64,000 bases of DNA. Source: Intestinirhabdus alba (GTDB taxonomy: Bacteria > Pseudomonadota > Gammaproteobacteria > Enterobacterales > Enterobacteriaceae). The DNA lies in assembly GCF_009711095.1 (NCBI RefSeq), contig NZ_WMJZ01000019.1:36899-100898 (forward strand), in the 5' to 3' direction. Of the stretch, positions 42,163-64,000 are shown one piece after another; positions within the stretch are counted from its first letter, which is position 1; each line of letters starts with the position of its first letter. The translations under genes were made by a program, and so were the position numbers. The notes under the pieces were generated by a model that did no database searches, was not told the DNA's origin, and was given only the letters and a program-made list of their open reading frames with translations.

Positions 42163-42173
42163 GGATAACGATC

Positions 42174-44541: not shown

Positions 44542-45100
44542 GCTTTTTCTGCGCGGCGAGAAGGTGCCGATGACCAAAGAGGCGGTGCGCGCGCTGGCGC
44601 TGGCCAGGCTGGAGCTGCACCGGGCCGGTCACCTGATTGATATCGGCGCGGGCACCGGCAGCGTCTCCATTGAGGCGGCGCTGCACTATCCCGCCCTGCG
44701 GGTGACGGCCATCGAGCGCAATCCCGCCGCGCTGCGCCTGCTTGAGGAGAACCGTCGGCGCTTCGCCTGCGGCAATATCGAGATTGTGCCGGAGGCGGCC
44801 CCGGTGGCGGTGGCCGAAAGGGCCGACGCCATCTTTATGGGCGGCAGCGGCGGTAGCCTGACGGCGCTTATCGACTGGTCGCTGAACCAGCTGCGCCCCG
44901 GCGGTCGGCTGGTGATGACCTTTATCCTGCAGGAGAATCTCGCCGTCGCCCTGGCGCATCTGGCGCAGCTCGGCGTGCCGGACGTTGACTGCCTGCAACT
45001 GCAGGTCTCATCGCTTAACGCGCTCGGCAGCGGCCACTACTTCAAACCGAATAATCCCGTTTTTGTTATCGCCTGTCAGAAGGAAGAGAACGATGTCTGA
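44531..45100 (+). CDS. cbiT: cobalt-precorrin-6B (C15)-methyltransferase (decarboxylating)
   Basis: 189 aa. Confidence 0.88.
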
Positions 45101-48409: not shown

Positions 48410-48419
48410 GGAGTAAACA

Positions 48420-49214
48420 ATGAAAAAAGCGCTTCTGGTGGTCAGCTTTGGCACCAGCTATCACGACACCTGTGAGAAAAATATTGTGGCCTGCGAGCGC
48501 GAGCTGGCGGCCAGCTGCCCGGATCGCGATCTGTTCCGGGCCTTCACCTCCGGCATGATTATCCGCAAGCTGGAGCGGCGCGACGGCATTCATATCGACA
48601 CGCCGCTGCAGGCGCTACAGCGGCTTGCCGACCTGGGCTACCGGGACGTGGCGATCCAGTCGCTGCACATTATCAACGGCGATGAGTATGAAAAGATCGT
48701 TCGCGAAGTGCAGGAAATGCGCCCGCGCTTCGCCCGCCTGACGCTCGGCGCGCCGCTGCTCAGCAGCCATGACGACTACGCGCAGCTGATGCAGGCTCTG
48801 CGCCAGCAGATGCCGCCGCTGGCGGCATCGGAGAAGGTGGTGTTTATGGGCCACGGGGCCAGCCATCACGCCTTTGCGGCCTACGCCTGCCTCGATCATA
48901 TGATGACCGCCCAGGGGTTTCCGGCGCGGGTCGGGGCGGTGGAGAGCTACCCGGAGGTGGATATCCTGATCGACGGCCTGAGCAGGGAGGGGGTTAGCGC
49001 CGTCCACCTGATGCCGCTGATGCTGGTGGCCGGGGACCACGCCATTAACGACATGGCTTCGGACGAAGAGGATTCATGGAAAACCCGCTTCAACGCCGCG
49101 GGCATCCCGGCGACGCCGTGGCTGAGTGGCCTGGGGGAGAACCCGGCGGTGCGCGCGATGTTCGTGGCCCACCTGCGCCAGGCCCTGAGCGCGGCGATGG
49201 AGGCGGCGGCATGA
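48420..49214 (+). CDS. cbiK: sirohydrochlorin cobaltochelatase
   Basis: 264 aa (MKKALLVVSFGTSYHDT...). Confidence 0.9.
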   Translation: MKKALLVVSFGTSYHDTCEKNIVACERELAASCPDRDLFRAFTSGMIIRKLERRDGIHIDTPLQALQRLADLGYRDVAIQSLHIINGDEYEKIVREVQEMRPRFARLTLGAPLLSSHDDYAQLMQALRQQMPPLAASEKVVFMGHGASHHAFAAYACLDHMMTAQGFPARVGAVESYPEVDILIDGLSREGVSAVHLMPLMLVAGDHAINDMASDEEDSWKTRFNAAGIPATPWLSGLGENPAVRAMFVAHLRQALSAAMEAAA

Positions 49215-49924
49215 GCGGCAGACTCTATGCCCTGAGCACCGGGCCGGGCGCGGCGGACCTGATTACCGTTCGCGCCGCCAGGGTGCTGGGGGCGCTGGAT
49301 ATTCTCTACGCGCCGGCCGGTCGCAAGGGCGGCGACAGCCTGGCGCTGTCCATCGTGCGCGACTATCTCGGCGAGCGCACTGAGGTGCGCTGCCGCCACT
49401 TTCCGATGAGCGCCGACGGTGCGGAGAAAGAGGCGGTGTGGAACGCGGTCGCCGACGAGCTGGCGGCGGAGGTGGCGTCCGGAAAGCAGGTTGGCTTTAT
49501 TACCCTCGGCGACGCCATGCTCTTCAGCACCTGGGTTTTTCTGCTGCAGCGCATCGGGCGGCAGGAGTGGCTGGAGATCGTCCCCGGCGTCACCTCCTTC
49601 GCCGCCATCGCCGCGCGCTCGCAGACCCCGCTGGCCATGGAGCAGCAGTCGCTGGCGGTGGTCTCCTGCACCGCGCCGGAGGCGGACATCGCCCGGGCGC
49701 TGGCGCAGCACGACAGCCTGGTGCTGATGAAGGTTTACGGCCGCTTCCCGCGCATTAAGGCGCTGCTCAGAGAGGCCGGGCTGCTGGATCGCGCGCTGAT
49801 GATGTCCGAGGCCACGCTGCCCGGCGAGCAGTGCTGGCGCAATCTGGATGAGGTCAGCGATGAGCGGCCGCTGCCCTATTTCTCAACCATTCTGGTCAAT
49901 AAACGTCTGGAGAGTGAGCAATGA
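49211..49924 (+). CDS. cbiL: cobalt-factor II C20-methyltransferase
   Basis: ATG at 49211 (MSGRLYALSTGPGAADLIT), 237 aa. Confidence 0.9.
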   Translation: MSGRLYALSTGPGAADLITVRAARVLGALDILYAPAGRKGGDSLALSIVRDYLGERTEVRCRHFPMSADGAEKEAVWNAVADELAAEVASGKQVGFITLGDAMLFSTWVFLLQRIGRQEWLEIVPGVTSFAAIAARSQTPLAMEQQSLAVVSCTAPEADIARALAQHDSLVLMKVYGRFPRIKALLREAGLLDRALMMSEATLPGEQCWRNLDEVSDERPLPYFSTILVNKRLESEQ

Positions 49925-50649
49925 AGAGTGAACAACGGCTGAAACGGCTGTCGCTGAGCGGCCTGGCGGCGGCGCTGCTGCTGATGGTTATCCCGGAGCA
50001 GGCCTTTGCGATGCACATTATGGAGGGCTTTCTGCCGCCGATGTGGGCGCTGGCCTGGTGGCTGCTGTTTTTACCCTGCCTGTGGTACGGGCTGGTGTGC
50101 CTGCGGCGCATTGTGCTGGAAGACAGCCATCAGAAGGTGCTGCTGGCCCTGTGCGGAGCCTTTATCTTCGTCCTGTCGGCGCTGAAGATCCCCTCCGTCA
50201 CCGGCAGTTGCTCCCACCCGACCGGGGTGGGGCTGGCGGTCATTCTGTTCGGGCCGGGGATTGTGTCGGTTCTTGGCGCGATTGTGCTGCTGTTCCAGGC
50301 GCTGCTGCTGGCGCACGGCGGGCTGACCACCCTTGGGGCCAACGGGATGTCGATGGCGGTGATTGGGCCGCTGGTCGGCTACGCCGCGTGGCGGATCGCC
50401 TGCCGGGTGGGGCTGCGCCGCGACGTTGGCGTCTTCCTCTGCGCCATGCTGGCGGATCTGGCGACCTATTTTGTCACCTCGCTGCAGCTGGGCGCGGCCT
50501 TTCCGGACCCGCAGGCGGGGGCTGCCGCCTCCATCGTCAAGTTTATGGGCATTTTCTGTCTGACGCAGTTCCCCATCGCCATCGCCGAGGGGCTGCTGAC
50601 GGTAATGATCTATGACCAGCTGACCAAACGACGGCTGATTGCCGCATAA
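49921..50649 (+). CDS. cbiM: cobalt ECF transporter substrate-capture (S) component
   Basis: 242 aa, polytopic membrane protein. Confidence 0.9.
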   Translation: MKSEQRLKRLSLSGLAAALLLMVIPEQAFAMHIMEGFLPPMWALAWWLLFLPCLWYGLVCLRRIVLEDSHQKVLLALCGAFIFVLSALKIPSVTGSCSHPTGVGLAVILFGPGIVSVLGAIVLLFQALLLAHGGLTTLGANGMSMAVIGPLVGYAAWRIACRVGLRRDVGVFLCAMLADLATYFVTSLQLGAAFPDPQAGAAASIVKFMGIFCLTQFPIAIAEGLLTVMIYDQLTKRRLIAA

Positions 50650-50659
50650 GGAGGCGAAG

Positions 50660-50941
50660 ATGAAAAAGACGCTGATACTTCTGGCGATGGTGGTGGCGCT
50701 GATCGTACTGCCGTTTTTCATTAACCACGGCGGTGAATATGGCGGGTCGGACGGCGAGGCGGAGAGCCAGATCCAGGTCATCGCGCCGCACTACCAGCCC
50801 TGGTTCCAGCCGCTGTATGAACCGGCCAGCGGCGAAGTTGAGAGCCTGCTGTTTACGCTGCAGGGCTCCCTTGGGGCGGCGGTGATTTTTTACATTCTCG
50901 GCTACGCGAGGGGCAGACAGCGTTGTGATGACCGGACTTGA
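50660..50941 (+). CDS. cbiN: cobalt transport protein CbiN
   Basis: ATG at 50660 with an AAGGAGG SD (MKKTLILLAMVVALIV...), 93 aa. Confidence 0.88.
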   Translation: MKKTLILLAMVVALIVLPFFINHGGEYGGSDGEAESQIQVIAPHYQPWFQPLYEPASGEVESLLFTLQGSLGAAVIFYILGYARGRQRCDDRT

Positions 50942-51605
50942 TCGGCTCAGCTACCGGAGCCGCTGGCTGCGCGTCGCCCCGGAGCGTAAATTTCTGCTCT
51001 GGCTGACGCTGATGGTGCTGGCCTTTGTCCTGCCGCCGCTGGGGCAGGGCATCGAGCTGGCGCTTACCGCCGGGCTGACCTGCTGGCTGCTGCGCATCTC
51101 TTTGCTGCGCTGGTGCCGCTGGATGGCGCTGCCGTTCGGCTTTCTGCTGATCGGCGTGGCGACCATTCTGTTCAGCGTCAGCCGCGATCCGCACGCCCTG
51201 CTGGCGGCAGTGCCGGTGGGCCATTACTGGCTGGGGATCGCCGCGTCGGGCATGACCACCGCCGTCGAGACCTTCTGGCGCAGCCTGGCGGCGCTGGCGG
51301 CGACCCTCTGGCTGGTGCTGAACCTGCCGTTTCCGCAGCTGATCGCGCTGCTGAAGCGGGCGCGGGTGCCGAGGCTGCTCACCGAGCAGATCCTGCTGAC
51401 CTGGCGCTTTATCTTTATTTTGCTGGACGAAGCGCTGGCCATTCATCGCGCCCAGACGCTGCGCTTTGGCTACCGCAGCCTGCCGAACGGCTATCGCTCG
51501 CTGGCGATGCTGGTGGGGCTGCTGTTTACCCGGGTGCTGATCCGCTACCAGCAGATGACCACCGTGCTTGACGTCAAACTGTATCAGGGTGACTTTCACC
51601 TGTAA
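50925..51605 (+). CDS. cbiQ: cobalt ECF transporter T component
   Basis: 226 aa, membrane protein. Confidence 0.88.
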   Translation: MMTGLDRLSYRSRWLRVAPERKFLLWLTLMVLAFVLPPLGQGIELALTAGLTCWLLRISLLRWCRWMALPFGFLLIGVATILFSVSRDPHALLAAVPVGHYWLGIAASGMTTAVETFWRSLAALAATLWLVLNLPFPQLIALLKRARVPRLLTEQILLTWRFIFILLDEALAIHRAQTLRFGYRSLPNGYRSLAMLVGLLFTRVLIRYQQMTTVLDVKLYQGDFHL

Positions 51606-51613
51606 GGAACCAC

Positions 51614-52429
51614 ATGCTTGCCACCACCGATCTCTGGTTTCGCTATCAGGACGAGCAGGTGCTTAAGGGGCTGACGCTGGACTTTTCCGCACACGCCGTC
51701 ACCGGGCTGGTGGGGGCGAACGGCTGCGGAAAGTCCACGCTGTTTATGAATCTCAGCGGCCTGCTGCGCCCGCAGCGGGGCGCGGTGCTGTGGCAGGGAA
51801 AGCCGCTGGACTACGGCAGGCGTGGTCTGCTGGCCCTGCGCCAGCGGGTGGCGACCCTGTTTCAGGACCCCGATCGGCAAATTTTTTATACCGATATCGA
51901 CAGCGATATCGCCTTCAGCCTGCGCAACCTGGGGGTGGCGGAGGCGGAGATTGCCCGCCGGGTGGAGGAGGCCCTGACGCTGGTTGACGCCCACGCCTTC
52001 CGCCACCGACCGATCCAGTGCTTAAGCCACGGGCAGAAAAAGCGCGTGGCCCTTGCCGGGGCGCTGGTGCTGCAGGCGGAGTACCTGCTGCTCGACGAGC
52101 CGACGGCGGGCCTCGATCCGGCCGGACGCGCGCAGATGATTGAAATTATCCGGCGCATCGTGGCCCAGGGGAACCATGTGGTGATCTCCAGCCACGATAT
52201 CGATCTGATCTATGAGGTCAGCGACACCGTTTATGTGCTGGGCCACGGCGAGGTGCTGGCCCACGGCGAGCCGGGGGCGGTGTTCGCCCGTAGCGAACTG
52301 ATTGCCGACGCCGGGCTGACCCAGCCCTGGCTGGTGAAACTGCACGCGCAGGCGGGCCTGCCGCTGTGCAAAACCGAAGATGAATTTTTTCAGCGTATGC
52401 GCCGGGAGGCGCGGAAGGAGAGGTCATGA
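51614..52429 (+). CDS. cbiO: cobalt ECF transporter ATPase
   Basis: 271 aa. ABC ATPase with Walker [10 protein letters not shown], signature LSHGQKKR, and Walker B LLLDEPT. Confidence 0.92.
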
Positions 52430-53949
52430 CCCAGGCGATTATGCTGCAGGGGACGGCGTCGGACGTCGGCAAGAGCGTGCTGGTGGCCGGGCTGTGCCGG
52501 ATTTTTGCGCAGGACGGCCTGCGCGTTGCACCGTTTAAGTCGCAGAACATGGCGCTCAACTCCGGCATCACGCCGGACGGCAAAGAGATGGGGCGGGCGC
52601 AGATTTTCCAGGCGGAGGCGGCGGGCATCGTTCCGGACGTGCGGATGAACCCGGTGCTGCTCAAGCCCACCAGCGACCGTAAGGCGCAGGTGGTGCTGAT
52701 GGGCAAGGTGGCGACCGACATGGACGCGGTGAGCTATCACCAGTACAAGCCGCGGCTGCGCGAACAGATCCTCGCCGTCTATCACGACCTGGCGCGGCAG
52801 TATGACGTGCTGGTACTGGAGGGGGCGGGCAGCCCGGCGGAGATCAACCTGCGCGATCGCGACATCGTTAATATGGGGATGGCGGAGATGGCCCGCTGCC
52901 CGGTGATCCTGGTGGCGGATATCGACCGGGGCGGGGTGTTCGCCTCGATCTATGGCACCCTGGCGCTGCTGCACGAGCGCGAGCGGGCGCGGGTCAAAGG
53001 GGTGATCGTCAATAAGTTTCGCGGCGACGTGGCGCTGCTCTACTCCGGCATCGAGCAGATCGAGGCGCTGACCGGGGTGCCGGTGCTGGGGGTGATGCCG
53101 TGGCTGGACGTCGATCTGGAGGATGAGGACGGCGTCGCCCTGCAAAAGGGCAAGTACCCGCGCCGGGACCATCGCGACATCGACATCGCGGTGGTGCAGG
53201 TGCCGCATATTGCCAACTTCACCGACTTTAACGCGCTGGCGGCGCAGCCGGACGTGCGGGTGCGCTACGTGCGTCGGCCGGAGGAGCTGGCGGAGGCCGA
53301 TCTGCTGATCCTGCCCGGCAGCAAGAACACCCTGGGCGATCTGACCTGGCTGCAGGAGAGCGGGATGGCCCACGCCGTGCTGCAGGCGCACCGTCGCAAG
53401 GTGCCGGTAATGGGCATCTGCGGCGGCTACCAGATGCTTGGCGAAACCATCATTGACGAGGTGGAGTCGGGCCTCGGCACCCGGCCAGGGCTGGGGCTGC
53501 TCGATACCGTCACCCGCTTTGCCCACCATAAAACCACCACCCGGGCGACGGCGACGCTTGCGGATGCGCTGCCCGGATGGCTGGCGGCCGCCTCCGGAAT
53601 AGCGGTGAGCGGCTATGAGATCCACATGGGCGAAACGACGCTGCGGGAGGCGTGCCGCAGCGCGCTGGCGCTGCAGAAGAACGGCCAGCGGGTGGCCGAC
53701 GGCGCGGTCAGCGCTGACGGGCTGGCGTTCGGCACCTATCTGCACGGCCTGTTCGACAGCGACAACTTCACCCGCGCCCTGGTGAACGGCCTGCGGCAGC
53801 GCAAAGGGCTGCCGCCGCTGGATCTGGCCTTTCAGTACGCGCACTATAAGGCGCAGCAGTTCGATCTGCTGGCGGAGGCCATGCGACAGCATATCGACAT
53901 GGCGAAAATTTATACCATCATGCAGCAGCATCAGGAGCCTTTATGCTGA
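52426..53949 (+). CDS. cbiP: cobyric acid synthase
   Basis: 507 aa. Confidence 0.92.
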
Positions 53950-54488
53950 CCCTTGTTACCGGCGGCGCGCGCAGCGGCAAAAGCCGCCATGCCGAAGCGC
54001 TGTTAGCCGACGCGCCGCGGGTGCTTTACATCGCCACCTCGCAAATTCTGGATGACGAAATGGCCGCCCGCGTTCGCCACCATCGCGACGGCCGCCCGGC
54101 GCACTGGCGTACCGCCGAGCGCTGGCGGCAGCTGGACGCGCTGATCGCGGCGGAGGGCGATCCCGACGAGGCCGTTCTGCTGGAGTGTATCACCACCATG
54201 GTCACCAACCTGCTGTTTGCCTTCGGCGGCGAAAGCGATCCGCAGACGTGGGATTTTGCGGCGCTGGAGCGGGCGGTCGACGACGAGATCGACAGGCTGA
54301 TCGCCGCCTGCCGGCGCTGTCCGGCGCGGGTCGTGCTGGTGACCAACGAGGTGGGGATGGGCATCGTGCCGGAAAACCGCCTGGCGCGCCATTTTCGCGA
54401 CATCGCCGGGCGGGTCAACCAGCGGCTGGCGACGGCGGCGGACGAGGTCTGGCTGGTGGTGTCCGGCATTGGAGTGAAAATTAAATGA
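53943..54488 (+). CDS. cobU: adenosylcobinamide kinase / adenosylcobinamide-phosphate guanylyltransferase
   Basis: 181 aa, P-loop GGARSGKS. Confidence 0.92.
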
Positions 54489-55228
54489 TCGTACGGTTCT
54501 GGGCGATGCTGGGATTTATCAGCCGTCTGCCGGTCCCCGTCCGCTGGACCCGGGGGCTGGACTTTGAGCATTACTCCCGCGGTATCGTCACCTTTCCGCT
54601 GGTGGGGCTGCTGCTCGGCGGCCTGAGCGGGCTGGCGTTTGTTATTCTTCAGGCGTGGTGCGGCGTGCCGCTGGCGGCGCTGTTCTGCGTGCTGACGCTG
54701 GCGCTGCTGACCGGCGGTTTTCATCTGGACGGCCTGGCGGACACCTGCGACGGCGTTTTCTCCGCGCGCCACCGGGAGCGGATGCTGGAGATTATGCGCG
54801 ACAGCCGCCTCGGCACCCACGGCGCGCTGGCGCTGATCTTCGTGCTGCTGGCGAAGGTGCTGGTCATCAGCGAGCTGGCGCTGCGCGGGACGCCGATGCT
54901 GGCCGCGCTGGCGGCGGCCAGTGCGGTAGGTCGCGGATGCGCCGTGCTGCTGATGTATCGCCATCGCTACGCCCGGGAGGAGGGGCTGGGAAACGTCTTT
55001 ATCGGCCACGTTTCCGGCCGACAGGCGGGCGTGACGCTGGGGCTGGCGGCGCTTCTGGCCGCGCTGCTGCTGCCGGGAATGGGTGGCGTGGTGGCGATGG
55101 TCGCGGCGGCCGCGGCGATTTTTATCCTCGGACAGCAGTTAAAGCGCACCCTGGGCGGGCAAACCGGCGACACGCTGGGCGCGGCAATTGAACTTGGCGA
55201 GCTGATCTTCCTGCTGGCTCTGCTGTGA
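54485..55228 (+). CDS. cobS: adenosylcobinamide-GDP ribazoletransferase (cobalamin synthase)
   Basis: 247 aa, membrane protein. Confidence 0.9.
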
Positions 55229-55253
55229 GTCGGCCAATACCATGAGGACCCTT

Positions 55254-56324
55254 ATGCAGACGTTAACCTCTTTACTTGATGCTATTCCCGCGCCTGACGC
55301 CGGGGCGATGGCCCGCGCCCAGCGGCATATTGACGGCCTGCTGAAGCCGCCGGGCAGCCTCGGGCGGCTGGAGGCGCTGGCGGTGCAGCTGGCGGGAATG
55401 CCGGGGCTGAACGGTCGGCCGCAGGTCGGTGAAAAGGCGATCCTGGTGATGTGCGCCGACCACGGCGTCTGGGATGAGGGAGTGGCGATCTCGCCGAAGG
55501 CGGTGACCGCCATCCAGGCCGCCAACATGACCCGCGGCACCACGGGAGTCTGCGCGCTGGCCGGCCAGGCGGGGGCGCGGGTGCAGGTGATTGACGTCGG
55601 CATCGACGCCGATCCGATCCCCGGCGTGGTGAATATGCGCGTGGCCCGCGGCTGCGGCAATATCGCCGTCGGCCCGGCGATGAGCCGCTCTCAGGCGGAG
55701 GCGCTGCTGCTGCAGGTAATGCGCTATACCCGCGGGCTGGCGCAGCAGGGCGTGACGCTGTTTGGCGTCGGCGAGCTGGGGATGGCCAACACCACTCCGG
55801 CGGCGGCCATCGTCGGGGTGCTGACCGGCAGCGATGCCGAAGCGGTGGTGGGGATCGGCGCTAACCTGCCGCCGTCGCGCATCGGCAATAAGGTGGCCGT
55901 GGTACGGCGGGCCATTGCCGTCAACCGGCCCGATCCGCAGGACGGCGTTGACGTGCTGGCGAAGGTTGGCGGGTTCGATCTGGTGGGCATGGCCGGCGTG
56001 ATGCTGGGGGCCGCCTCCTGCGGGCTGCCGGTGCTGCTTGACGGCTTTCTCTCCTATTCGGCGGCGCTGGCGGCCTGCCGGATCGCCCCGCAAATTAAGC
56101 CTTATCTGATCCCGTCGCACCTCTCGGCGGAAAAGGGGGCGCGGATTGCGCTGGCGCAGCTGGGGCTGGTGCCTTACCTCAATATGGAGATGCGCCTGGG
56201 CGAAGGCAGCGGAGCGGCGCTGGCAATCCCCATCGTCGAGGCGGCCTGCGCGATGTACGACACGATGGGGCAGCTTGCCGACAGCAATATCGTGCTGCCG
56301 GCGACGCCGGGCCGCTCCGCGTAA
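55254..56324 (+). CDS. cobT: nicotinate-nucleotide--dimethylbenzimidazole phosphoribosyltransferase
   Basis: ATG at 55254 ([40 protein letters not shown]), 356 aa, matching E. coli/Salmonella CobT. The ATG at 55242 is a possible 4-codon extension. Confidence 0.92.
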
Positions 56325-56375
56325 CGTCCAGGCCCGGCTGCGGAGCGTGGGCGGCTCGTCCATCAGCCGGGTCGC

Positions 56376-58847
56376 TCACTTTTTGCAGTACGCTTTGACC
56401 TGCATTATCTCCTTCTTAAGATTTTCCTCCAGATAGTCGGTAAAACGGTGTCCCCAGCGGCTCAGCAGACTTTCCGCTTCGGGGAAATCCTGCTGTTCAA
56501 TGGCGTGCTTGATTTGTACTTTCGCGAGATTAACCTCAATAATCTTGTTGTCTTTCTTGCGTTTAATAACGCTCTGAATATCTTTTAGCAGCTCCGCATA
56601 CTGATAGTTCCGGCCTTTGGCGGAAAAGATTTCCAGTAAAGAGATCTTTAGCTGAATATTCAGCTGGGTGCTTTTGGATAACGAATCGAGCAGGGCGATA
56701 TTTTGATTATCAACCAGCACATCTTTCATCTTTTCACGCACGTGGAAGAAGGTGGTGTTTTTCCGTTCATCCGCGATTTTTAATTTTTCCAGACACTCTT
56801 CTATTTTATTCACTAATGCGGTAGTGCGTTCCTGACGATACAGCGACAATAAGGCCCAGGCCTTGATGTCGAGGATGAAAGGGTTATCAACGTCGATCGA
56901 CAGCGCTTTGTCGGCATAGGATATCGCCTCATCGAAGCGTTCATCAAAAGAGTAGATTGTGGCGATTTCCCGGAATACATGGGCATCAATATCTCTTTTT
57001 TCTTCGATCTTCATCAGGCACTTCAGCGCATCCTTCAGCCTGCCGTTTAGTCTGTATTTGAAGCCGTTGACAAAATTGTAGATGATATCTTTTTTGGGAT
57101 GGTTGGGAATAGTTAAGTACTGTTCTTTGAATGAGGTAAAGGCTTTCTCATTGCCGGTTCTGGCGGAGGAGAGCCCGATCAGTCGCCAGGTCTCAATTTT
57201 TCCCTCAGGGCTTAATTTGGTTTGCCATTGGTTAGCATCTTGCGCCAGCTGCAGAGCGTCAGCGTATTCCCTTTCATTATAGCGTCGCTTTGCGGCCTTA
57301 ATCAGCTGGATCGGCATGACAAAGTTTTTGAGATAATCGGGGAGGGGTTCGTCAGTCACTAAATGGGAGACAATCCTGGCATCTAAAATATCGATGGGGA
57401 CGTAGGTGTCGCTGTCGACCTCGGAGTATTTTTGCAGGATGACTTTGATATGCGGTAACAGCTCCGCACGGTACATCTGCGCATATCTGGAGGCGGCATT
57501 TTGCAGATAGGTGGAAAGGCGATAATCATTTTTTTGATATTGTAAAAAACCAGAGTCAATCAGCTTTGATAAACCGTACTCAAAGTCTGGCCAGCTTTTA
57601 CCGATCTCTTTTGCTTCGTTAAATGACACAATATCGGCCATGCCAAAAAAGCCGATGGCTTTTTCTAGCTTCACGTCATTTTTGACGAAATCCTGGATGA
57701 GTCTGTTTACCTCGGTTCTGACCTTTGAAACAATAGTGCCGTGCGTCTTGTTGATTTTATATCCAGGATTGGTTTTTAAATAGGTTGCCACCATATTTAT
57801 TAAACCCGGATGGCCGATAACGCTTTGCTCTATAATATGTGTTTCTGATTTCGGGATATGTACGCTATAAAGATTGATAAGCATTCTGAACAGGTAGATA
57901 GAGTCATCTTCACTCAATGGGAAAACCTGGTAGGCGTATCCCTCTTTGAGATCGTCGAGATCCACATTTCTTTTAGAGATGAACACCACAAGTGGCCACG
58001 AATGCTTATTTAAGGCGGTAATAAAGGAAATGAAAAGTTCATTCAGGCGATCGTCATTGATCACATTGGAGTTGGATATATTAATGAGTAGTGCCTGCTT
58101 GCCGGGGATGCAAATACTATCAATCATGGCGCTGAGCTTTTCGAGCTGCTTCGGCTCGGTTAACTTATCAAATGACTTTCTTTGATCAAGATATTCGCCC
58201 GCTTTCCAGTTGGCAGTATATTGTAATAGCGAGTCGTGTATACTGCTTAAATCCGCAAATTCCCCGATATCAAGCTGAATAAAGCCATTTACCAGACGAT
58301 AGAGCTTTTTATAGACTTCGCGGGCTAAGGTTCTTCTTCCGATACCGTCCGGGCCGCTGAGAAAAAGAAATTTCGGGTTCTGCTCCATCATGATCAGGTC
58401 ACCGGTAATTTTCTTTACATCATCCTCCCGCCCATAGCACTCCTGCGTTTGATTTTTTACTAATGCCTGAAGTTCGTTGCGAATAGCGATGGCGATCTGA
58501 ATGGGGTTGGGGATCGATTCCGCGCGGTACTGTTGAAAAGATTCAGGTAACTCGCTCCATTTTGTGTCATCTAATAAAAAAACCATTATCTTTTTAAGCG
58601 ACTGGTTAAACAACAGCTCCTTGGCTAAGTTTATTTCCCCCTGTACCCAGCCGCTGGCCAGCGCGGATTTAGATAAAAACAATACAAAAATTTCACAATC
58701 AAGCATGCTTTCTCTGATTTCATCAATCAGGTAAGCATTAGACGGGAATGTTTTTTCATCAAATATGGCATGAGTTGCTGACAGATGTTCATAAACCTTT
58801 TTTACAAAGTCTTTATCGGCAAAGTTATGGGATAAAAAAGCTTTCAT
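56376..58847 (-). CDS. TIR-domain / P-loop STAND-like NTPase / TPR-like repeat protein (candidate single-gene NLR-type antiphage or abortive-infection effector)
   Basis: 823-aa ORF. ATG at 58847 with a GGAGG SD 5 nt upstream. Residues 1-~130 carry TIR hallmarks (MKAFLSHNFADKD...FDEK...IDEIRESMLDCEIFVLFLSKSALASGWVQGEINLA: FxSH start, SxxW, Glu at W+4). Walker-A-like FLFLSGPDGIGRRTLAREVY at aa 160-178. The C-terminal ~350 aa is helical repeat-rich. About 42% GC against ~65% in the neighbours. Confidence 0.85.
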   Translation of the reverse strand: MKAFLSHNFADKDFVKKVYEHLSATHAIFDEKTFPSNAYLIDEIRESMLDCEIFVLFLSKSALASGWVQGEINLAKELLFNQSLKKIMVFLLDDTKWSELPESFQQYRAESIPNPIQIAIAIRNELQALVKNQTQECYGREDDVKKITGDLIMMEQNPKFLFLSGPDGIGRRTLAREVYKKLYRLVNGFIQLDIGEFADLSSIHDSLLQYTANWKAGEYLDQRKSFDKLTEPKQLEKLSAMIDSICIPGKQALLINISNSNVINDDRLNELFISFITALNKHSWPLVVFISKRNVDLDDLKEGYAYQVFPLSEDDSIYLFRMLINLYSVHIPKSETHIIEQSVIGHPGLINMVATYLKTNPGYKINKTHGTIVSKVRTEVNRLIQDFVKNDVKLEKAIGFFGMADIVSFNEAKEIGKSWPDFEYGLSKLIDSGFLQYQKNDYRLSTYLQNAASRYAQMYRAELLPHIKVILQKYSEVDSDTYVPIDILDARIVSHLVTDEPLPDYLKNFVMPIQLIKAAKRRYNEREYADALQLAQDANQWQTKLSPEGKIETWRLIGLSSARTGNEKAFTSFKEQYLTIPNHPKKDIIYNFVNGFKYRLNGRLKDALKCLMKIEEKRDIDAHVFREIATIYSFDERFDEAISYADKALSIDVDNPFILDIKAWALLSLYRQERTTALVNKIEECLEKLKIADERKNTTFFHVREKMKDVLVDNQNIALLDSLSKSTQLNIQLKISLLEIFSAKGRNYQYAELLKDIQSVIKRKKDNKIIEVNLAKVQIKHAIEQQDFPEAESLLSRWGHRFTDYLEENLKKEIMQVKAYCKK

Positions 58848-59413
58848 GCTGGCCTCCGTGTCACAAAATAAATATTAATGATAAGTGTGTAGGGCTGTAT
58901 GACAGCGTGTTCAGGGCGATACCAATGTACTTATTTTTAAGGCAAATTACCATCTGCTTTTTCGGGGCTGGCGAGAGATAAAATTGAATGCCGTGAATAT
59001 AAAATAAATTTATCATTTCCCGGTGATATGCGCGTGGTGCATTGGGTTCATCCTTAAGTGCTGTTACCGGCGGCGCTGGCTTATCAGATGCAATCATTTA
59101 CGTTCGGTGAACCGCGCGCTCAGGCAGATGCAGGGGGATTTTCCCGGCGCGATGGCGCGGCGAAAACTGGAGTGGCTCTGTTCTGGATCCTGCCTTATTG
59201 CGAAGGGAAAGCGCGCTTTGCCTGTAACCACCGGGCGGTGTGTTTTCAGGTTAACCTGCAATAATTCTTAATATTTTCAGGGCATAATTAAAAGCCTGGC
59301 GCAGATCAAAAGATACAGCTGGCAAATAAACTCCGCGGTAAATGCAGGGAAAGCCGTGCCCCAATATAAAAAAGCTATAATTTCTGTCTACGGCTAAAAC
59401 AGAGGAATAGAGA

Positions 59414-60346
59414 ATGCTGCCTCCGGTGAAACTGCTTTGCTCTTTTATGATGCTGCTGATCGGCCACAGCGCGCTGGCGGTGAGCTATCCACTGCCGCCG
59501 GAAGGTAGCCGCCTGGTAGGGACGCCGCTGACCATCGCCGTCCCGCGCGGTAATACGCAGCCGCTGGAGGCCTTTGCCGCACAGTACGGTCAGGGACTGA
59601 GCAATATGCTTGAGGCAAACCCAAATGTGGACGTGTTTCTGCCCGCTTCTGGCTCTACCCTGGTGGTGCCGCAGCAGCTTATTTTGCCCGATACCGTGCG
59701 TGAAGGCGTGGTGATTAACGTTGCCGAGATGCGTCTCTATTACTACCCGCCCGGCGGCAACACCGTTGAGGTGCTGCCGATCGGCATCGGGCAGGCCGGC
59801 CGCGAAACGCCGCGCAGCTGGGTGACGAGGGTGGAACGTAAGCGGGAAGCCCCCTCCTGGACGCCCACCGCAAACACCCGGCGTGAGTATGCCAGGCGCG
59901 GCGAAAGCCTGCCTGCATTCGTGCCGCCGGGGCCGGATAATCCGATGGGGCTGTACGCCATTTATATCGGCAGGCTGTACGCGATTCACGGCACCAACGC
60001 TAACTTTGGCATCGGGCTTCGGGTAAGCCAGGGCTGTATTCGCCTGCGTAATGACGATATTAAATACCTGTTCGACAACGTGCCCGTGGGCACGCGGGTG
60101 CAGATTATCGACAGGCCGGTGAAGATGACGACCGAGCCGGACGGCAGCCGCTGGGTTGAGGTGCACGAACCGCTGTCGCGTAACCGGGCGGAGTTTGAAT
60201 CTGATAACAGAGTGCCGCTGCCGGTTACGCCGGTCACCCGGGTGCTGATGAACGGTGACGGCGTGGACGGCGTCCGGGCGCGTGAAGCGCTGGAGCGCCG
60301 CTCCGGGATGCCGGTGAACATTACGCCGGGGCAGAGAGGCATTTAG
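59414..60346 (+). CDS. ldtA: L,D-transpeptidase (YkuD/ErfK family)
   Basis: 310 aa. Signal peptide, catalytic HGTN...SQGCIRL motif. Matches E. coli ErfK/LdtA. Confidence 0.9.
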
Positions 60347-60594
60347 CGCCAGGCCCGCCGGCTGCTGCCGTCGCGGGCCGTTTGAACGCGGCTCGCCTGG
60401 CGGTCATTCAGGTCAGGAGCAGGGCGCGAGCCGTCAGGTCTGGTGATTGCCGATGCGCGGCGAGCAGCGCGGCAGCGGCCCTGAATAGCCCCGGTCCTGC
60501 GGGATGCGAGCCACAAGCGCGTGCTCTGTGTTGCCAGGCTTGATTACGCGCTTGTAGCTTAGCGTCGACGCCACGCCCGGTGAAGGAACGCGGC

Positions 60595-61593
60595 CTAGAG
60601 ATTGTCGAGAATAATTCTCTTTTTGCTATCAAACTCTTCCTGGGTCAGGATGCCTTCTTCGAGCAGGCTTTTTAGCATCCGCAGCTTTGCCTGCGGCTCC
60701 TGCTGCTGCGTGTCGACAGCGGTCTGCTGCGGCTGCAGCAGCGTTTTCCCCAGATCCAGCCCGGCCCCCAGCTGTAACCCCGCCGCGGCCAGCCCGGACT
60801 CATTTTTTGCCGCATCCCGCAGCGCACGCAGCCTTTCCAGCCCGACGTAATCCAGTCCGACTTCGCTGGCCGATGCGGCTTCCACCTTCATTTGCGCCAG
60901 CTGCCTGATGCGCGCCAGCGTATCTTCGCTGAAGGTCGTACCGGCAATGCGCATATCCGTCAGCCGCAGCCCCAGCGCATTATAGATCTGGTTGATGGCC
61001 GCTTTCAGTTGTGCGGAGAGGGCGGCGAGCTGCGCGTCAATTTGCGTGTAGGCATAGCCGGCCTGCGCCAGTAAAGCGGCGATTTCCGGCGCTATCCGGG
61101 AATTAATGATGCTCTGCAGATCCGCCTGCGTAAAGCTATCCCGGCTACCGACGATATTCTCAAAAAACAGTCGCGCATCCTCAATACGAAACGCATAGGT
61201 TCCGTAGGCCCCAAGCTCCATCGGCAGCTGGTGGTTCGGTTCGGTATATTTGACGGGGGAAGAGGTTCCCCACTGCTGGTTGACCTGCTCCGTTTGTCGC
61301 CAGAAGTAAAGGTACAGCTTATGTTCGCTTTCAAAGCGACGCAGCAGGCTAGCCAGTGAGGTAATAAAAGGTGTGTTAGCCGTCTTCAGATCGTGAATGC
61401 CCGGTTCACTGAGCACATCGATAATTTTTCCTTCATAGACCAGAACGCATCCCTGTCCGGGGGCGACAATGAGCTTGCTGGCGTTTTTGATTTCATCGGT
61501 TGGCGTGACCAGCCGGCTGAAAAGAACCGCGGGATCGTGATTTTTCCACTCGATGACCCCCGGCAGCTGTCTTTTAAATAAATTCCTTAACAT
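60595..61593 (-). CDS. SPFH (band-7-like) domain protein with C-terminal SHOCT domain
   Basis: 332 aa. A central region resembles the SPFH/'virion core protein' family. The last ~28 aa (AKLRMLKSLLEEGILTQEEFDSKKRIILDNL) are a SHOCT motif. The stop is 3 nt downstream of the upstream gene, consistent with an operon. Confidence 0.8.
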   Translation of the reverse strand: MLRNLFKRQLPGVIEWKNHDPAVLFSRLVTPTDEIKNASKLIVAPGQGCVLVYEGKIIDVLSEPGIHDLKTANTPFITSLASLLRRFESEHKLYLYFWRQTEQVNQQWGTSSPVKYTEPNHQLPMELGAYGTYAFRIEDARLFFENIVGSRDSFTQADLQSIINSRIAPEIAALLAQAGYAYTQIDAQLAALSAQLKAAINQIYNALGLRLTDMRIAGTTFSEDTLARIRQLAQMKVEAASASEVGLDYVGLERLRALRDAAKNESGLAAAGLQLGAGLDLGKTLLQPQQTAVDTQQQEPQAKLRMLKSLLEEGILTQEEFDSKKRIILDNL

Positions 61594-61596
61594 AGA

Positions 61597-62988
61597 TTAT
61601 TCCTCATAGGTCAGCGTGTAGGTGGTTTGCGTTTTTCCGTCGGCATCGATGGTGTAGAGATGGGTGCAGTCCTTTTCCATTAAAAAGCCGTCGTCAAACG
61701 GGTAGATATCCTGTATTCCCGGCGAAGGGATGGTCCAGAGTACCGCGCCGCTATCAGGATCAAGCTTTTGCAGATTATAGGCTGCATCCGGGCTGGCGTT
61801 TTCTTTTACGGCAATAAACAAATTTTTCTGGTCATAATACATAATGACGGGTGAGAAATAGATGCGATCCGGATCGGTAAGATTCTTAAAATTAATGATG
61901 CGATATCGGTCAGCGTCATCCAGAACTCTTATTTTGGTCGCTGGTCCGACATAGGTTTTTGATTCAGGATCGTAGCCCTCATACCAGTTTAATCTCTGTG
62001 GAATAGATATCGGGCCACCGTTATTATTCAGGTAGGTAATTTTGATTAACTCCTTTTTGTCCCCTTCCTTAGGGAACTTCGGCCCAACAAATTTGTAGAG
62101 GGTTGCCGGGCTGTGGTCAGGAAGCAGATTGCGCATAAAATGGCTGGCATTATAAATAGCATCATCGCCCGCATAAACTTTATCAATTACGGGATAATAG
62201 TACAGCCGTTTGCCATCATTGCTCAGAATGGTAAAGCCGCTGCCCTGGCTGTGGGAGACAAAATCAATGGTGGCAATGCCGGACTGAAACGCTTTGTGGC
62301 CGGAAAAAAACGTTTCGCCCACGGGATCTATCGACAACGTATCACTATTCAGCTGAAATAATTCACGCTGGAGTAGAATAAGATAAATTTTGCCATCCGC
62401 AAATTCCCGGATACTCCAGCTCTTCGAGGGTGTTCCCCATCTCGCTTTGGCGTGGGAGTTAATGCGCACCTTTTTTACAATTTTCTTTGTAGTAAGATCG
62501 GTAAAAACCGCGTAGAAGCCGCTTTCTGGATCGTCCGCCTGCTGCTGGACACCACTTCCCGAAACTTTTTCAACCACAGAAAGGTAGATTTTTTGCTGCG
62601 AATGGGGCAAAAACGAACAGACAAATGTGGTATAGCGGGCCGGCTTTTTTAGCTCCGATGTCGGAGACGCGGTAGTGCTGGTGCTGGACGAAGTGTGCTT
62701 TACCGGGATGGCCGCTTTTTCGAACCGGAAAAAAAGGGTCAGCGCGCCGGACAGTAACAGCAGGCCAACGACAATCAGGCCCAGCGTCTTCAGCAGCCTG
62801 ATCTCATCCTCAGGGAGGCATTCTTTATGCGGCGGCGGTTCATGATGGCGGATATGAACGTTAATATCGTCATTGTCCAGATAATACTCGCTATGACAGC
62901 TCTGACAAAGATAGTGTTCGGCTGCAAGCGCTGTTTTTTGCGTGCTTCCGCATTGCGGACATTTAATTGTTTTTAGCTGTTTTGCCAT
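61597..62988 (-). CDS. zinc-ribbon / single-TM / periplasmic beta-rich domain protein of unknown function
   Basis: 463 aa. N-terminal CPQCGS...CQSCHS zinc ribbon, TM helix LGLIVVGLLLLSGALTLFF, Ser/Thr-rich linker, and a ~330-aa C-terminal domain with no motif I recognise. Lower GC than the host genes. ATG at 62988. Confidence 0.75.
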   Translation of the reverse strand: MAKQLKTIKCPQCGSTQKTALAAEHYLCQSCHSEYYLDNDDINVHIRHHEPPPHKECLPEDEIRLLKTLGLIVVGLLLLSGALTLFFRFEKAAIPVKHTSSSTSTTASPTSELKKPARYTTFVCSFLPHSQQKIYLSVVEKVSGSGVQQQADDPESGFYAVFTDLTTKKIVKKVRINSHAKARWGTPSKSWSIREFADGKIYLILLQRELFQLNSDTLSIDPVGETFFSGHKAFQSGIATIDFVSHSQGSGFTILSNDGKRLYYYPVIDKVYAGDDAIYNASHFMRNLLPDHSPATLYKFVGPKFPKEGDKKELIKITYLNNNGGPISIPQRLNWYEGYDPESKTYVGPATKIRVLDDADRYRIINFKNLTDPDRIYFSPVIMYYDQKNLFIAVKENASPDAAYNLQKLDPDSGAVLWTIPSPGIQDIYPFDDGFLMEKDCTHLYTIDADGKTQTTYTLTYEE

Positions 62989-63504
62989 ATTGAAATAAAA
63001 CCATAGGTTCCCCGTCAGGCACCTGCCGCAGAGAAAAAGTGACGTTTAAGGAGAGCGGAACGCTTTCCAACCGATGCGCGGGATTAAATAAAAAGCGCGC
63101 GATATGCGGATGATTTGAATATCGGTATCGGTAAAAAATAATTATTTATATTCATGTAACCTTCCTTAGTATTTATGAAAATTATAGATTTGCGTTTATT
63201 CCCTCCCGATGGCGGCGATCGGCGCTGCCGGTGGGGCTGCCACGATAAATTCATCGCTCGACGCCCGGAAAGTGGCAGATAAAAACGCAATTAACGGCAC
63301 TTCCGGGGCGATGTTACTTGAAACCCTGGATGAGATAAAGCCTGCGGTCCGGACGTTCTGTTCCGAATTTTGCTATGGGAGGTTTTTTAACGGTCGGGCA
63401 AGGGCTGGCGCGCCCCGGGGCGGACTGGAGAACGTCTGGTGTAACCACTTTTACGTTACCGAACGAGTCTGACTGGATTTTATTGGTTGAGGAATTCAGG
63501 TCAT

Positions 63505-64000
63505 ATGCCTTATCCAGGCATACAGAGCGTGGGGGAAATAGCGAGATGTGTTGTCACGCTGGAAACAGAGTGGCCGCGCTCAACAGCCTGTTTTACCGCT
63601 TTGATTTTAAACACTTTGAATCGTCACTGGTTTTTACAAACATCGCTTTTAAGGCAAATTGAAAAATGGACGGGGAGAGGCAGAGATCCCGTAGAGGTTG
63701 CCAGGGAAGAGTACGCAGCCAGAGTCGTTGCAGAGCGAGAAGCGGAGGAAAAACGACTGGCGGAAGAACGTGAGCGTAATCGTGTCTTTGCCAAATCCTG
63801 CCTTCGTGGTGAAGGTTGTAATGATGCCGGAGAAGAGCAGGAACCTCATACTAATTTTGCGGCAATGGCATTTTATCAGGCAGTTCCATCAGCTGATCCA
63901 GCTTTCGAGACTGATGTTCCCCAACATGCTCAGACTGCCAGGAAAAAGAAACCAGCAGAGGAGATCCCGGAACCCAGGAAGCGAAGCTCCTTTTATAAAT
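63505..64000 (+). CDS. hypothetical protein, 5' partial (runs off the window end)
   Basis: Open frame of 165+ codons from the ATG at 63505 with no stop before the window end (MPYPGIQSVGEIARCVV...EAEEKRLAEERERNRVFAK...). Charged/low-complexity middle. Not in the ORF track because it has no stop. Confidence 0.45.
   Translation, partial: MPYPGIQSVGEIARCVVTLETEWPRSTACFTALILNTLNRHWFLQTSLLRQIEKWTGRGRDPVEVAREEYAARVVAEREAEEKRLAEERERNRVFAKSCLRGEGCNDAGEEQEPHTNFAAMAFYQAVPSADPAFETDVPQHAQTARKKKPAEEIPEPRKRSSFYK

Follow-up and report, generated by a model that had tools for sequence, protein, structure and literature searches.

A predicted NLR-like antiphage receptor gene, acquired horizontally and lodged between cobT and ldtA of Intestinirhabdus alba, is a distant relative of TIR-NLR

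Why are cobT and ldtA, direct neighbours in E. coli and Salmonella, separated by 3,089 bp in Intestinirhabdus alba, and what is the function of the single gene lodged between them? We addressed this question in a 64,000-nucleotide stretch of contig NZ_WMJZ01000019.1 (the window), in which cobT ends at position 56324 and ldtA starts at position 59414. In E. coli, Citrobacter rodentium and Salmonella the two genes lie 61, 97 and 119 bp apart, respectively, and all three junctions represent empty sites. The entire gap has a GC content of 44.3% and the open reading frame (ORF) within it 43.2% (GC3 of 0.519), compared to 69.2% for cobT (GC3 of 0.85), 62.7% for ldtA (GC3 of 0.75) and 66.4% for the cob region. 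The GC3 of the flanking genes ranges from 0.75 to 0.87 versus 0.52 in the inserted gene, a foreign codon composition. Judged from its sequence, the gene is a horizontal acquisition of the I. alba lineage. These figures bear out the earlier note on this DNA, which had described an insertion of about 3.1 kb at a conserved junction, with about 42% GC against about 65% in the cob genes, holding a single 823-residue ORF with its own ribosome-binding site (RBS) downstream of an AT-rich region. The presence/absence variation that it proposed to look for is seen against the three related genera, in which the site is empty; within I. alba, the gene is present here in all available contigs, which show no such variation and only an IS-disrupted allele.

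The right edge of the foreign DNA is marked by a block that contains the native proximal promoter and leader of ldtA (AAAAAAGCTATAAT; 59364–59413, plus strand) and is conserved with the cobT-ldtA spacers of Citrobacter, Salmonella and E. coli. As this block begins at about 59364, the foreign DNA occupies about 56325–59360. On the left, a GC-rich 51-bp spacer (56325–56375) separates cobT from the convergent gene and forms part of a hairpin at this boundary (56337–56389), the RNA fold of which (−32 kcal/mol, z of −2.2 on the plus strand) is only modestly better than that of shuffled sequences. Upstream of the gene lie about 510 bp of DNA (58848–59360) that is foreign by composition and apparently non-coding. 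Its first 173 bp (58848–59020) are AT-rich (38% GC) and are followed by a GC-richer patch (59021–59260, 57% GC). The AT-rich stretch carries a sigma-70-like site (58878–58905, minus strand) that is not above chance, and the 566-bp upstream region as a whole displays no promoter- or terminator-like sites beyond shuffled expectation, no meaningful match to an Rfam family and no similarity to E. coli. A 78-residue ORF in this DNA has no Pfam or PADLOC match. Integration targeted to a tRNA at this exact site was rejected because there is no tRNA gene in 56000–64000, and PADLOC found no defence genes among the adjacent genes.

The intact ORF (56376–58847, minus strand, with the stop codon at 56376–56378) starts with an ATG located 5 nucleotides downstream of a GGAGG Shine-Dalgarno element (58853–58857, minus strand). 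Its product is identical to WP_155109019.1, named 'TIR domain-containing protein [Intestinirhabdus alba]'. The AlphaFold2 model of the 823-residue protein has a mean pLDDT of 84.8 and a pTM of 0.68. The protein comprises a TIR effector domain (residues 1–112; 58512–58847), delineated by Pfam TIR_2 and by alignments to the Klebsiella pneumoniae TIR-NLR protein (KpTIR-NLR) and to Cat1, a STAND nucleotide-binding oligomerisation module (NOD; residues 136–480; 57408–58442), delineated by Foldseek, NB-ARC and secondary structure, and a C-terminal TPR-like superhelical sensor domain (residues 481–823; 56379–57407), all on the minus strand. The TPR-like repeats reported earlier are confirmed, and the C-terminus is TPR/MalT-like and not LRR. 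Weak matches of residues 747–821 to PADLOC PDC-S02 were treated as TPR-repeat noise. The complete protein has nothing but sub-threshold matches in NCBIfam and belongs to no PHROGs family.

An architecture of this type has been described and validated as antiphage for the TIR-NLR protein of K. pneumoniae SB5442, which is encoded in a P4-satellite hotspot (Rousset et al. 2022, PMC9122126). The KpTIR-NLR sequence is identical to that of PDB entries 9m0n/9umd and is represented in PADLOC by model PDLC03015 (Rst_TIR-NLR). A profile of the I. alba family matches 9m0n_A end to end (hmmsearch, residues 1–818 against 1–820, E = 6.1e-45), and hhalign aligns the family with KpTIR-NLR over 765 columns (99.8%, E = 2.8e-29) at 21% identity. 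The intermediate relatives P0057–P0064 match PDLC03015 over nearly its full length with 96–291 bits. For the I. alba protein itself, the best stretch of the PDLC03015 match (E = 2.1e-21) pairs profile positions 2–310 of 824 with residues 1–299, about a third of the protein; BLASTP against KpTIR-NLR is limited to residues 1–174 (32% identity, E = 1e-19), and 9m0n is not among the Foldseek PDB matches of the model. The I. alba gene is, by these alignments, a distant relative of the validated TIR-NLR and hence of a known kind of system. Given the low identity, the short BLASTP alignment and the partial PADLOC coverage, trigger specificity and possibly details of activation may differ between the two proteins.

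This full-length homology upholds the earlier note's proposal of an NLR-like antiphage architecture, and narrows it. No observation that the note had listed as refuting it turned up. Of the likenesses to Avs, bNACHT and TIR-NLR proteins drawn there, that to TIR-NLR stands, whereas the protein has no match at E ≤ 1 to a PADLOC AVAST model or to Pfam NACHT (PF05729) and is not a bNACHT protein in the sense of Kibby 2023. The novelty claimed for it was overstated, since the architecture is published, the PADLOC model is matched by the I. alba protein and the structures are solved. Our literature search found no mechanistic study of TIR-NLR and no paper citing 9m0n/9umd, and TIR is not mentioned in Béchon et al. 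2024.

The TIR domain retains the pocket residues of an NADase. Pfam TIR_2 matches residues 4–96 above the curated cut-off (E = 1.7e-13), and in the S65-G-W67-V-Q-G-E71 motif, already pointed out from the sequence, W67 and E71 are invariant among 30 homologues. Glu71 (W67-x3-E71; codon 58635–58637, minus strand, verified) is the predicted catalytic glutamate. The alignment of the I. alba TIR with that of Cat1 (E = 7.9e-7) places S6, H7, D30, S65 and E71 opposite S7, H8, D33, S68 and E74 of Cat1, respectively; among the 30 homologues, S6, H7, D30 and E71 never vary, and S65 occurs in 29. As aligned, the I. alba protein has thus kept these residues of the NADase pocket known from Cat1. In Cat1, E74 lines the NADase site and is needed for toxicity, and the site is formed only between two stacked TIRs (PMC12162218), which supports an oligomerisation-gated NADase activity in the I. 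alba protein. Similarity to the Thoeris protein ThsB is marginal (Pfam ThsB_TIR, 21.3 bits against a cut-off of 21.2; PADLOC ThsB, 8.8e-5), no gene for a ThsA-type effector is adjacent in I. alba or in seven other contexts, and the protein was not classed as a Thoeris ThsB.

The NOD is more unusual. Foldseek matches the module to the STAND-TPR protein 6mfv (3e-9), RPP1 (5e-8), NRC4, Roq1, Dark, MalT and EfAvs5, and its secondary structure pattern is that of a nucleotide-binding domain, a helical domain with G345-H-P-G-L and a winged helix. The NB-ARC score is just above the Pfam cut-off (23.9 against 23.5 bits), whereas that of AAA_16 is under it (28.3 against 32.6 bits). The P-loop NTPase core of the earlier note is present as a STAND fold, but its P-loop is non-canonical, which the note had missed, as it had the residue at Walker B. 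In the homologue alignment, the P-loop G165-P-D-G-I-G-R171-R172-T173 (58329–58355, minus strand) carries an arginine at the expected Walker A lysine; R171 never varies, R or K follows it at position 172, and position 173 holds T or S. The motif GxxGxGR[RK][TS] is present in 66 of the 73 retrieved proteins and in a distant branch, and KpTIR-NLR ('GLIGVGRRS') likewise has an arginine instead of the lysine. The Walker B aspartate position is occupied by Asn256 (codon 58080–58082, minus strand, verified). This position is Asp in 25 and Asn in five of 30 homologues, the I. alba protein being one of the five, and the second Walker B acidic residue, which would follow it, is missing in the clade of the I. 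alba protein. The hhhhSKR 'sensor' stretch of the earlier note is present as VVFISKR, with S291 and R293 nearly invariant. From the family-wide arginine in Walker A, together with Asn256 in this copy, we infer that ATP hydrolysis is no part of the switch in the I. alba protein; nucleotide binding may persist. The exchange in Walker A, the lone Walker B acid of the clade and Asn256 all deviate from the canonical STAND switch. A switch driven by ATP hydrolysis is not to be assumed, and the Walker-A mutants suggested earlier have to be reconsidered.

Homologues with 73–76% identity are found as solo genes. Those of Serratia and Kosakonia occupy unrelated loci, and that of Lelliottia is part of a P2-like prophage, in which it sits between gpS and gpV. 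DNA similarity among these copies and that of I. alba ends at the ORF ends, and their flanks share nothing with the window. The Kosakonia copy has a NACHT protein 4.4 kb away, and a Pseudomonas homologue is surrounded by conflict-system and pyocin genes; further homologues come from Proteobacteria that live free in soil and water. No neighbouring gene is shared across the contexts from I. alba, Serratia, Kosakonia, Lelliottia, Pseudomonas, Achromobacter and Paraburkholderia, and the I. alba gene is, as its neighbourhoods read, a single-gene system with no obligate partner. The clade comprises about seven clusters at 50% identity inside a superfamily of several hundred clusters. A tblastn search of 50,697 phage records gave no match, a plasmid search gave distant relatives only (23–32% identity), and a scan of genome contigs with the single protein gave no relative; an alignment-based rescan of the contigs detected no more than four betaproteobacterial loci, all distant. 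Purifying selection acts on the gene (pN of 0.16 against a saturated pS, pN/pS of about 0.17 against homologues), with a pN of 0.13 in the TPR sensor and 0.20 in the NOD.

In sister I. alba assemblies, the gene is interrupted by an IS903-like element of 1,057 bp with inverted repeats GGCTTTGTTGAATAAATC and a DDE_Tnp_1 gene (in L005). According to blastn breakpoints and junction sequences, the element is flanked by a duplication of a 9-bp site (CCGTTTTAC on the gene strand; 56440–56448), and the insertion replaces the last 20 residues (804–823) with a changed C-terminus. The gene can thus be dispensed with in at least some circumstances. Several independent samples share one and the same intact allele.

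Combining these findings, we propose that this horizontally acquired gene codes for an antiviral STAND (NLR-like) receptor that belongs to the TIR-NLR family, consists of a single polypeptide and acts by the following mechanism, a reading to which we assign a probability of roughly 0.75. At rest, the protein would be kept autoinhibited by its MalT-like TPR sensor together with the NOD. A trigger supplied by the phage, probably a protein or peptide, would bind to the TPR superhelix, upon which the NOD would drive oligomerisation. The N-terminal TIR domains would then gather and stack, completing composite NADase sites around Glu71, and the ensuing depletion of cellular NAD+ would arrest or kill the infected cell ahead of phage release (abortive infection). 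The sequence itself establishes the homology and the anatomy; we infer the antiphage activity of the I. alba copy, its trigger, its oligomerisation and a loss of NAD+ as opposed to signalling.

The last of these points has an alternative. Instead of depleting NAD+ itself, the TIR domain might, as in Thoeris, produce a cADPR isomer or His-ADPR as a signal for an effector whose gene lies elsewhere. ThsB-type bacterial TIRs act in this way, and the I. alba protein has the weak matches to ThsB models described above; hydrolase and cyclase chemistry are indistinguishable by sequence alone. However, none of eight independent contexts offers a conserved partner gene, KpTIR-NLR is functional when cloned on its own, and a systematic survey of TIR signalling set aside Avs and standalone TIRs as likely NAD+-depleting effectors (bioRxiv 10.64898/2025.12.03.692087), so that signalling appears quite improbable. 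The purpose of the gene could also be other than defence. Bacterial TIR virulence factors exist (TcpB/BtpA, TcpC), and a factor directed against a eukaryote (the insect gut) or against competing bacteria would fit the annotation of I. alba as a gut-associated enterobacterium, the TcpB and PdTIR-type proteins among the PDB matches of the TIR, and the pyocin and CdiI genes found near the sister-strain gene and adjoining the Pseudomonas homologue. Yet there are no secretion or delivery genes nearby in the eight contexts, a STAND module with a sensor is the architecture of an intracellular receptor, homologues reside in free-living Proteobacteria and at a moron site of a P2-like prophage, and the closest relative to have been characterised acts against phage; we regard such a role as very improbable.

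A third reading accepts the ancestry of the gene and regards the I. alba copy as decayed, a defence gene nearing loss with a dead NTPase. Asn256, the Walker A arginine, the loss of the last 20 residues to the IS903-like element in sister assemblies and the lack of defence neighbours could all be taken in this sense. The arginine, however, is a property of the whole family including the validated KpTIR-NLR, and Asn256 recurs in five of 30 otherwise intact full-length homologues. Furthermore, the 2.5-kb ORF is unbroken, its RBS is intact, its TIR pocket is invariant, pN/pS is low, and the same intact allele recurs in independent samples. Decay is consequently unlikely, and a functional antiviral receptor is the reading that we prefer.

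Tentatively, and with the odds somewhat against it, the whole TIR-NLR family including KpTIR-NLR might possess a pseudo-NTPase NOD, the activation of which is independent of hydrolysis and perhaps of nucleotide, ligand alone driving oligomerisation. Such a protein would be a STAND receptor without the canonical ATP timer, and its unusually conserved TPR sensor would point to a conserved trigger. The family-wide exchange of Lys for Arg in the P-loop and the natural Asp/Asn variation in Walker B make the requirement of STAND proteins for ATP hydrolysis testable with natural variants, and this variation is the most useful lead for specialists. The gene also adds a divergent clade to a validated family, one that current defence-system models may catch only partially, and, as a natural case, cleanly illustrates how a solo defence gene moves between a moron site of a P2-like prophage and chromosomal junctions that are unrelated, with one allele truncated by an IS in sister assemblies. 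None of this alters how bacterial NLR-like immunity is currently pictured.

Among known systems, Avs/AVAST proteins (Gao 2020, 2022; Lee et al. 2026) share the effector-NOD-sensor logic of the I. alba protein. They carry an N-terminal effector, a STAND NOD and a mostly TPR-like C-terminal sensor of conserved phage proteins, the engagement of which leads to cell death, and STAND proteins have been divided into 589 clades (Lee et al. 2026, PMC13581612). KpAvs8 sets a precedent for degenerate Walker motifs and EfAvs5 is among the fold matches, but the AVAST models of PADLOC do not recognise the I. alba protein at E ≤ 1. The plant TIR-NLRs RPP1, ROQ1 and WRR4A also have a TIR followed by an NB-ARC-type NOD, and Foldseek aligns both (E of 5e-8 to 3e-4). 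In plant resistosomes, oligomerisation unites the TIR domains for NADase activity, and the sensor is an LRR with a C-JID instead of a TPR, next to a canonical GKT P-loop. With 12–14% identity and a TPR/MalT-like C-terminus that lacks the LRR of these proteins, the likeness is a matter of analogous design and of ancient domains common to both, not of membership. MalT, the prototype bacterial STAND transcription activator, is a maltotriose sensor and transcription regulator that differs in lacking a TIR and in carrying a LuxR DNA-binding domain at its C-terminus. Cat1, a CRISPR-associated TIR NADase, has the closest characterised TIR by sequence after KpTIR-NLR, with conserved pocket residues, but is activated by cA4 at its CARF domain and forms filaments without STAND or TPR modules. 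The E. coli 'TIR-II' is a validated single-protein TIR and TPR system that has an ATPase domain in about 30% of its homologues and is present in Caudoviricetes genomes (PMC11350192); compared by description only, it may belong to the same superfamily.

TIR-NLR itself is the closest of these systems. Both it and the I. alba system consist of a single gene (823 residues in I. alba, 824 in KpTIR-NLR) with the domain order TIR, STAND NOD and MalT-like TPR. They have in common the 'KAFLSH...' N-terminus, the W-x3-E motif of the TIR, in which E71 aligns with E72 of KpTIR-NLR ('SEWVKKE'), the unusual GxGRR[ST] P-loop and the hhhhSxR and GxP motifs, and P2-type mobile elements carry family members. 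They differ in that identity is just 21% overall and 32% in the TIR, that the sensor of the I. alba protein has diverged, and that Walker B is DD in KpTIR-NLR, a single D in the I. alba clade and N in the I. alba copy, which is chromosomal and lies between core genes, whereas KpTIR-NLR is found in a P4 hotspot.

The TIR-NLR-like gene is an uninterrupted open reading frame of 823 codons (56376-58847, minus strand), preceded by the Shine-Dalgarno sequence GGAGG 5 nt ahead of its ATG and housed in the 3,089 bp that separate the cobT stop (56324) from the ldtA start (59414). The earlier note had described a single low-GC frame with a strong ribosome-binding site in a gap of about 3.1 kb, and everything it described in the sequence is present. 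The GC content is 43.2% for the frame (GC3 0.519) and 44.3% for the whole gap; the corresponding values are 69.2% for cobT (GC3 0.85), 62.7% for ldtA (GC3 0.75) and 66.4% for the cob region (40000-56324). Viewed at 2-kb resolution, the 64-kb window has its lowest GC in the stretch that holds the frame and in 62001-64000. A second dip (0.537 versus ~0.63-0.69 around it) is found at 36001-40000, just upstream of the cob/cbi cluster. The exact protein, WP_155109019.1 (MTH47430.1) of Intestinirhabdus alba, carries no annotation beyond 'TIR domain-containing protein' or 'TPR repeat protein'.

In all three comparison genomes, cobT and ldtA are co-oriented neighbours with spacers of 61 bp (E. coli), 97 bp (Citrobacter rodentium) and 119 bp (Salmonella enterica), which bears out the direct adjacency claimed earlier for E. 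coli and Salmonella. The closest sequences to the window CobT come from Citrobacter (identity up to 89%). A proximal ldtA promoter block, AAAAAAGCTATAAT, is common to these three genera and resumes in the window at ~59364, so that the foreign DNA spans ~56325-59360. The gene is thus an insertion. It occupies the cobT-ldtA site in all 13 I. alba contigs retrieved through CobT, none of which has an empty site; the position is simply where the I. alba lineage happened to acquire the gene.

The foreign DNA includes ~510 bp upstream of the frame (58848-59360) with no recognised function: the segment has no Rfam family and no E. coli match, and its small open reading frame matches nothing in Pfam or PADLOC. 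A GC-richer patch within it (59021-59260, 57% GC) ends with a hairpin and T-run (59218-59247, plus strand). This segment might be a remnant of the vehicle that delivered the gene. At the opposite end, a long GC-rich hairpin (56337-56389, −32 kcal/mol, z −2.2) covers the stop codon and the 51-bp spacer that separates cobT from the convergent TIR-NLR-like gene; the two genes may share it as a terminator, although its stem is not followed by a canonical T-tail.

Just past ldtA lies a gene pair with GC of 0.56 and 0.47, below that of the host (60595-62988, minus strand), which is kept in all I. alba contigs. One member encodes a 332-residue SPFH/Band_7_1 and SHOCT protein (Pfam 1e-35), the other a 463-residue protein that begins with a CxxC...CxxC zinc ribbon, contains a hydrophobic segment resembling a TM helix as judged by eye, and belongs to no Pfam or PADLOC family. 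In the sister I. alba locus L005, pyocin_S/CdiI_5 genes come after the pair, together with an integrase Arm-DNA-binding fragment; E. coli carries tRNA-Asn genes on that flank. Because of the low-GC pair, the pyocin_S/CdiI_5 genes and the integrase fragment, this flank of ldtA is also regarded as accessory DNA.

Pfam TIR_2 matches residues 4-96 above its cut-off (E 1.7e-13), NB-ARC scores 23.9 bits against a cut-off of 23.5, AAA_16 falls under its cut-off, and weak TPR matches cover residues 626-655. An AlphaFold2 model built from a 30-sequence alignment (mean pLDDT 84.8, pTM 0.68) displays an α/β TIR domain (1-112) followed by a linker helix, a nucleotide-binding oligomerisation module (NOD, ~136-480) of NBD/helical/winged-helix organisation, and an all-helical repeat domain (~485-822). 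In the PDB, Foldseek matches this model to STAND proteins, including the STAND-TPR protein 6mfv (3e-9), plant RPP1 (5e-8), NRC2/3/4, Roq1, Dark, MalT, SAMD9 and EfAvs5. The three modules proposed earlier (TIR, NTPase and TPR-like C-terminus) hold up.

The PADLOC 'TIR-NLR' model (824 positions), which derives from Rousset et al. 2022 (PMC9122126), matches residues 1-299 only (E 2.1e-21). The system it describes, KpTIR-NLR, consists of one gene, found in a P4-satellite hotspot of Klebsiella pneumoniae, whose product is given as TIR + STAND + TPR (PMC9122126). In BLASTP against its 399 N-terminal residues, taken from Table S2A of that paper, residues 1-174 align at 32% identity (E 1e-19). The top PDB match of the window-family profile is 9m0n_A/9umd ('Tetratricopeptide repeat protein', 824 aa), whose sequence is identical to KpTIR-NLR across the 399 N-terminal residues compared. 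The profile match to 9m0n_A is collinear, 1-818 against 1-820 (E 6.1e-45), as is the hhalign match (99.8% probability, E 2.8e-29, 765 aligned columns, 21% identity), from which the window protein emerges as a full-length, distant homologue of this validated and structurally solved defence protein. The more distant homologues P0057-P0064 match the PADLOC model over nearly its full length (96-291 bits) and bridge the two groups. By sequence, the window protein belongs to a sister clade of KpTIR-NLR and is not its orthologue.

The TIR residues S6, H7, N8, D30, S65 and E71 align with S7, H8, N9, D33, S68 and E74, which line the NADase site of the CRISPR-associated TIR protein Cat1 (PMC12162218). 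Also part of this site are K121 and Y122, supplied by another TIR stacked on the first, and alanine mutants of N10, D33, S68, E74, K121 and Y122 abolish growth-arrest toxicity in vivo (PMC12162218). In the 30-member family alignment S6, H7, D30, W67 and E71 are invariant, the last two representing the W...E arrangement noticed earlier, and S65 is present in 29. Catalytic competence of the pocket seems likely, and it is plausible that the active site forms only upon TIR-TIR stacking.

The NTPase is non-canonical. The P-loop reads G165-P-D-G-I-G-R171-R172-T173, and in the same alignment the position expected for the Walker A lysine is an invariant arginine (R171), followed by R/K and T/S. Of the 73 retrieved proteins, 66 share the motif G-x-x-G-x-G-R-[RK]-[TS]; it is also present in the distant branch, and KpTIR-NLR has it as GLIGVGRRS. 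The arginine P-loop is a hallmark of the family rather than a lesion. At the end of the Walker B strand, 25/30 members have one Asp that no further acidic residue follows, and the other five have Asn, the window protein among them (N256), whereas KpTIR-NLR has DD. S291 and R293, from the hhhhSKR 'sensor' stretch picked out earlier, are nearly invariant and consistent with a sensor-1/RNBS-B-like motif. G345-H-P-G-L is invariant and aligns with the KpTIR-NLR 'GLP', the STAND GxP motif. KpAvs8 provides a precedent for degenerate Walker motifs (PMC13581612). The switch probably does not involve hydrolysis of ATP.

A word-indexed search returned about 55 relatives of full length (roughly 820 residues). 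Among them are proteins with 73-76% identity from Serratia, Kosakonia and Lelliottia, and others with 35-42% identity from Pseudomonas, Achromobacter, Paraburkholderia, Massilia and Methylomonas. An exhaustive search of 1.84 billion representatives gave 933 clusters at E ≤ 1e-3, 478 at E ≤ 1e-10 and 68 at E ≤ 1e-30; only about seven clusters fall in the narrow clade of the window protein. The surroundings differ wholly from genome to genome: the homologue lies between a tautomerase/HxlR pair and ychF in Serratia marcescens, next to guaA in Kosakonia, inside a P2-like prophage in Lelliottia, amid conflict-system and pyocin S genes in Pseudomonas brassicacearum, amid metabolic genes in Achromobacter and beside a transposase fragment in Paraburkholderia. 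No partner gene common to these six contexts was found. In Lelliottia sp. 489 (L011 6923-9777), the 73%-identical copy is a moron between tail-completion gpS and baseplate gpV, a slot other than the hotspots in P2 and P4 to which Rousset et al. drew attention. The Kosakonia sacchari locus (L010 2546-5602), where a 1,018-residue NACHT/NCH3 protein (bNACHT-like) is encoded 4.4 kb off, adjoining an SMI1_KNR4 gene, may be a small defence islet. The P. brassicacearum surroundings (L022 3402-6388 and 13683-16091) comprise CTD9/MC5/AAA_23 genes (Pfam families from predicted conflict systems), a gene for a Ser/Thr kinase, a pair of DUF6124 genes and pyocin S/cloacin-immunity genes, and resemble an island for competition and defence close to queA-tgt.

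Similarity among the enterobacterial copies is 67-69% at the nucleotide level and ends at the boundaries of the frame. The gene is under purifying selection (pN 0.16-0.17 against these copies, with synonymous sites saturated). Split by domain, the TIR has a pN of 0.12-0.14 and the TPR one of 0.12-0.13, against 0.19-0.21 in the NOD: unusually, the TPR 'sensor' is at least as conserved as the TIR effector, and the NOD evolves faster than both, the opposite of a rapidly diversifying sensor.

The L005 locus (4.83-Mb JGI assembly) is 100% identical to the window save for a 1,057-bp IS903-like element (L005 12409-13465). The element is bounded by inverted repeats of 18 bp, GGCTTTGTTGAATAAATC, encodes a DDE_Tnp_1 transposase and has duplicated 9 bp of its target, CCGTTTTAC (window 56440-56448); these are the properties of IS903. 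It lies in the 3' end of the gene, where residues 804-823, predicted to form the last helix, give way to nine unrelated ones, which accounts for the 812-residue variant P0001. The same variant is encoded by the Logan contig L006, which ends at that point. The insertion may amount to a naturally occurring knock-out of the terminal helix of the sensor.

Considering (i) the anatomy of the protein, (ii) its homology, (iii) the conservation of its pocket, and (iv) the foreign origin, solo mobility and purifying selection of its gene, we infer the dynamic steps of the following best-supported model. At rest, the protein would be an autoinhibited monomer. Once its MalT-like TPR superhelix had bound a ligand derived from a phage, NOD-mediated oligomerisation would follow, the TIR domains would stack to create composite NADase sites, and the collapse of NAD+ would abort the infection. 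Decay of the window copy, to which the unusual NTPase motifs might point, is improbable, as these 'defects' are conserved family-wide and the gene is under purifying selection. A TIR that signals instead of depleting NAD+ is a slightly weaker contender, given that no conserved partner gene accompanies it, and a host-directed TIR factor is highly improbable in light of the protein architecture and the distribution of homologues.

The reading of the gene as an NLR-like antiphage candidate is supported, with the protein as a distant member of the TIR-NLR family, but its novelty is not: the TIR-STAND-TPR architecture was published and validated in 2022, and has a detection model and solved structures. 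Mildly new are the divergent window clade, whose function is predicted and of which the PADLOC model spans only the N-terminal third, the natural Walker B Asp/Asn variation atop a family-wide Lys-to-Arg P-loop, and the prophage-to-chromosome distribution together with the IS-truncated allele.
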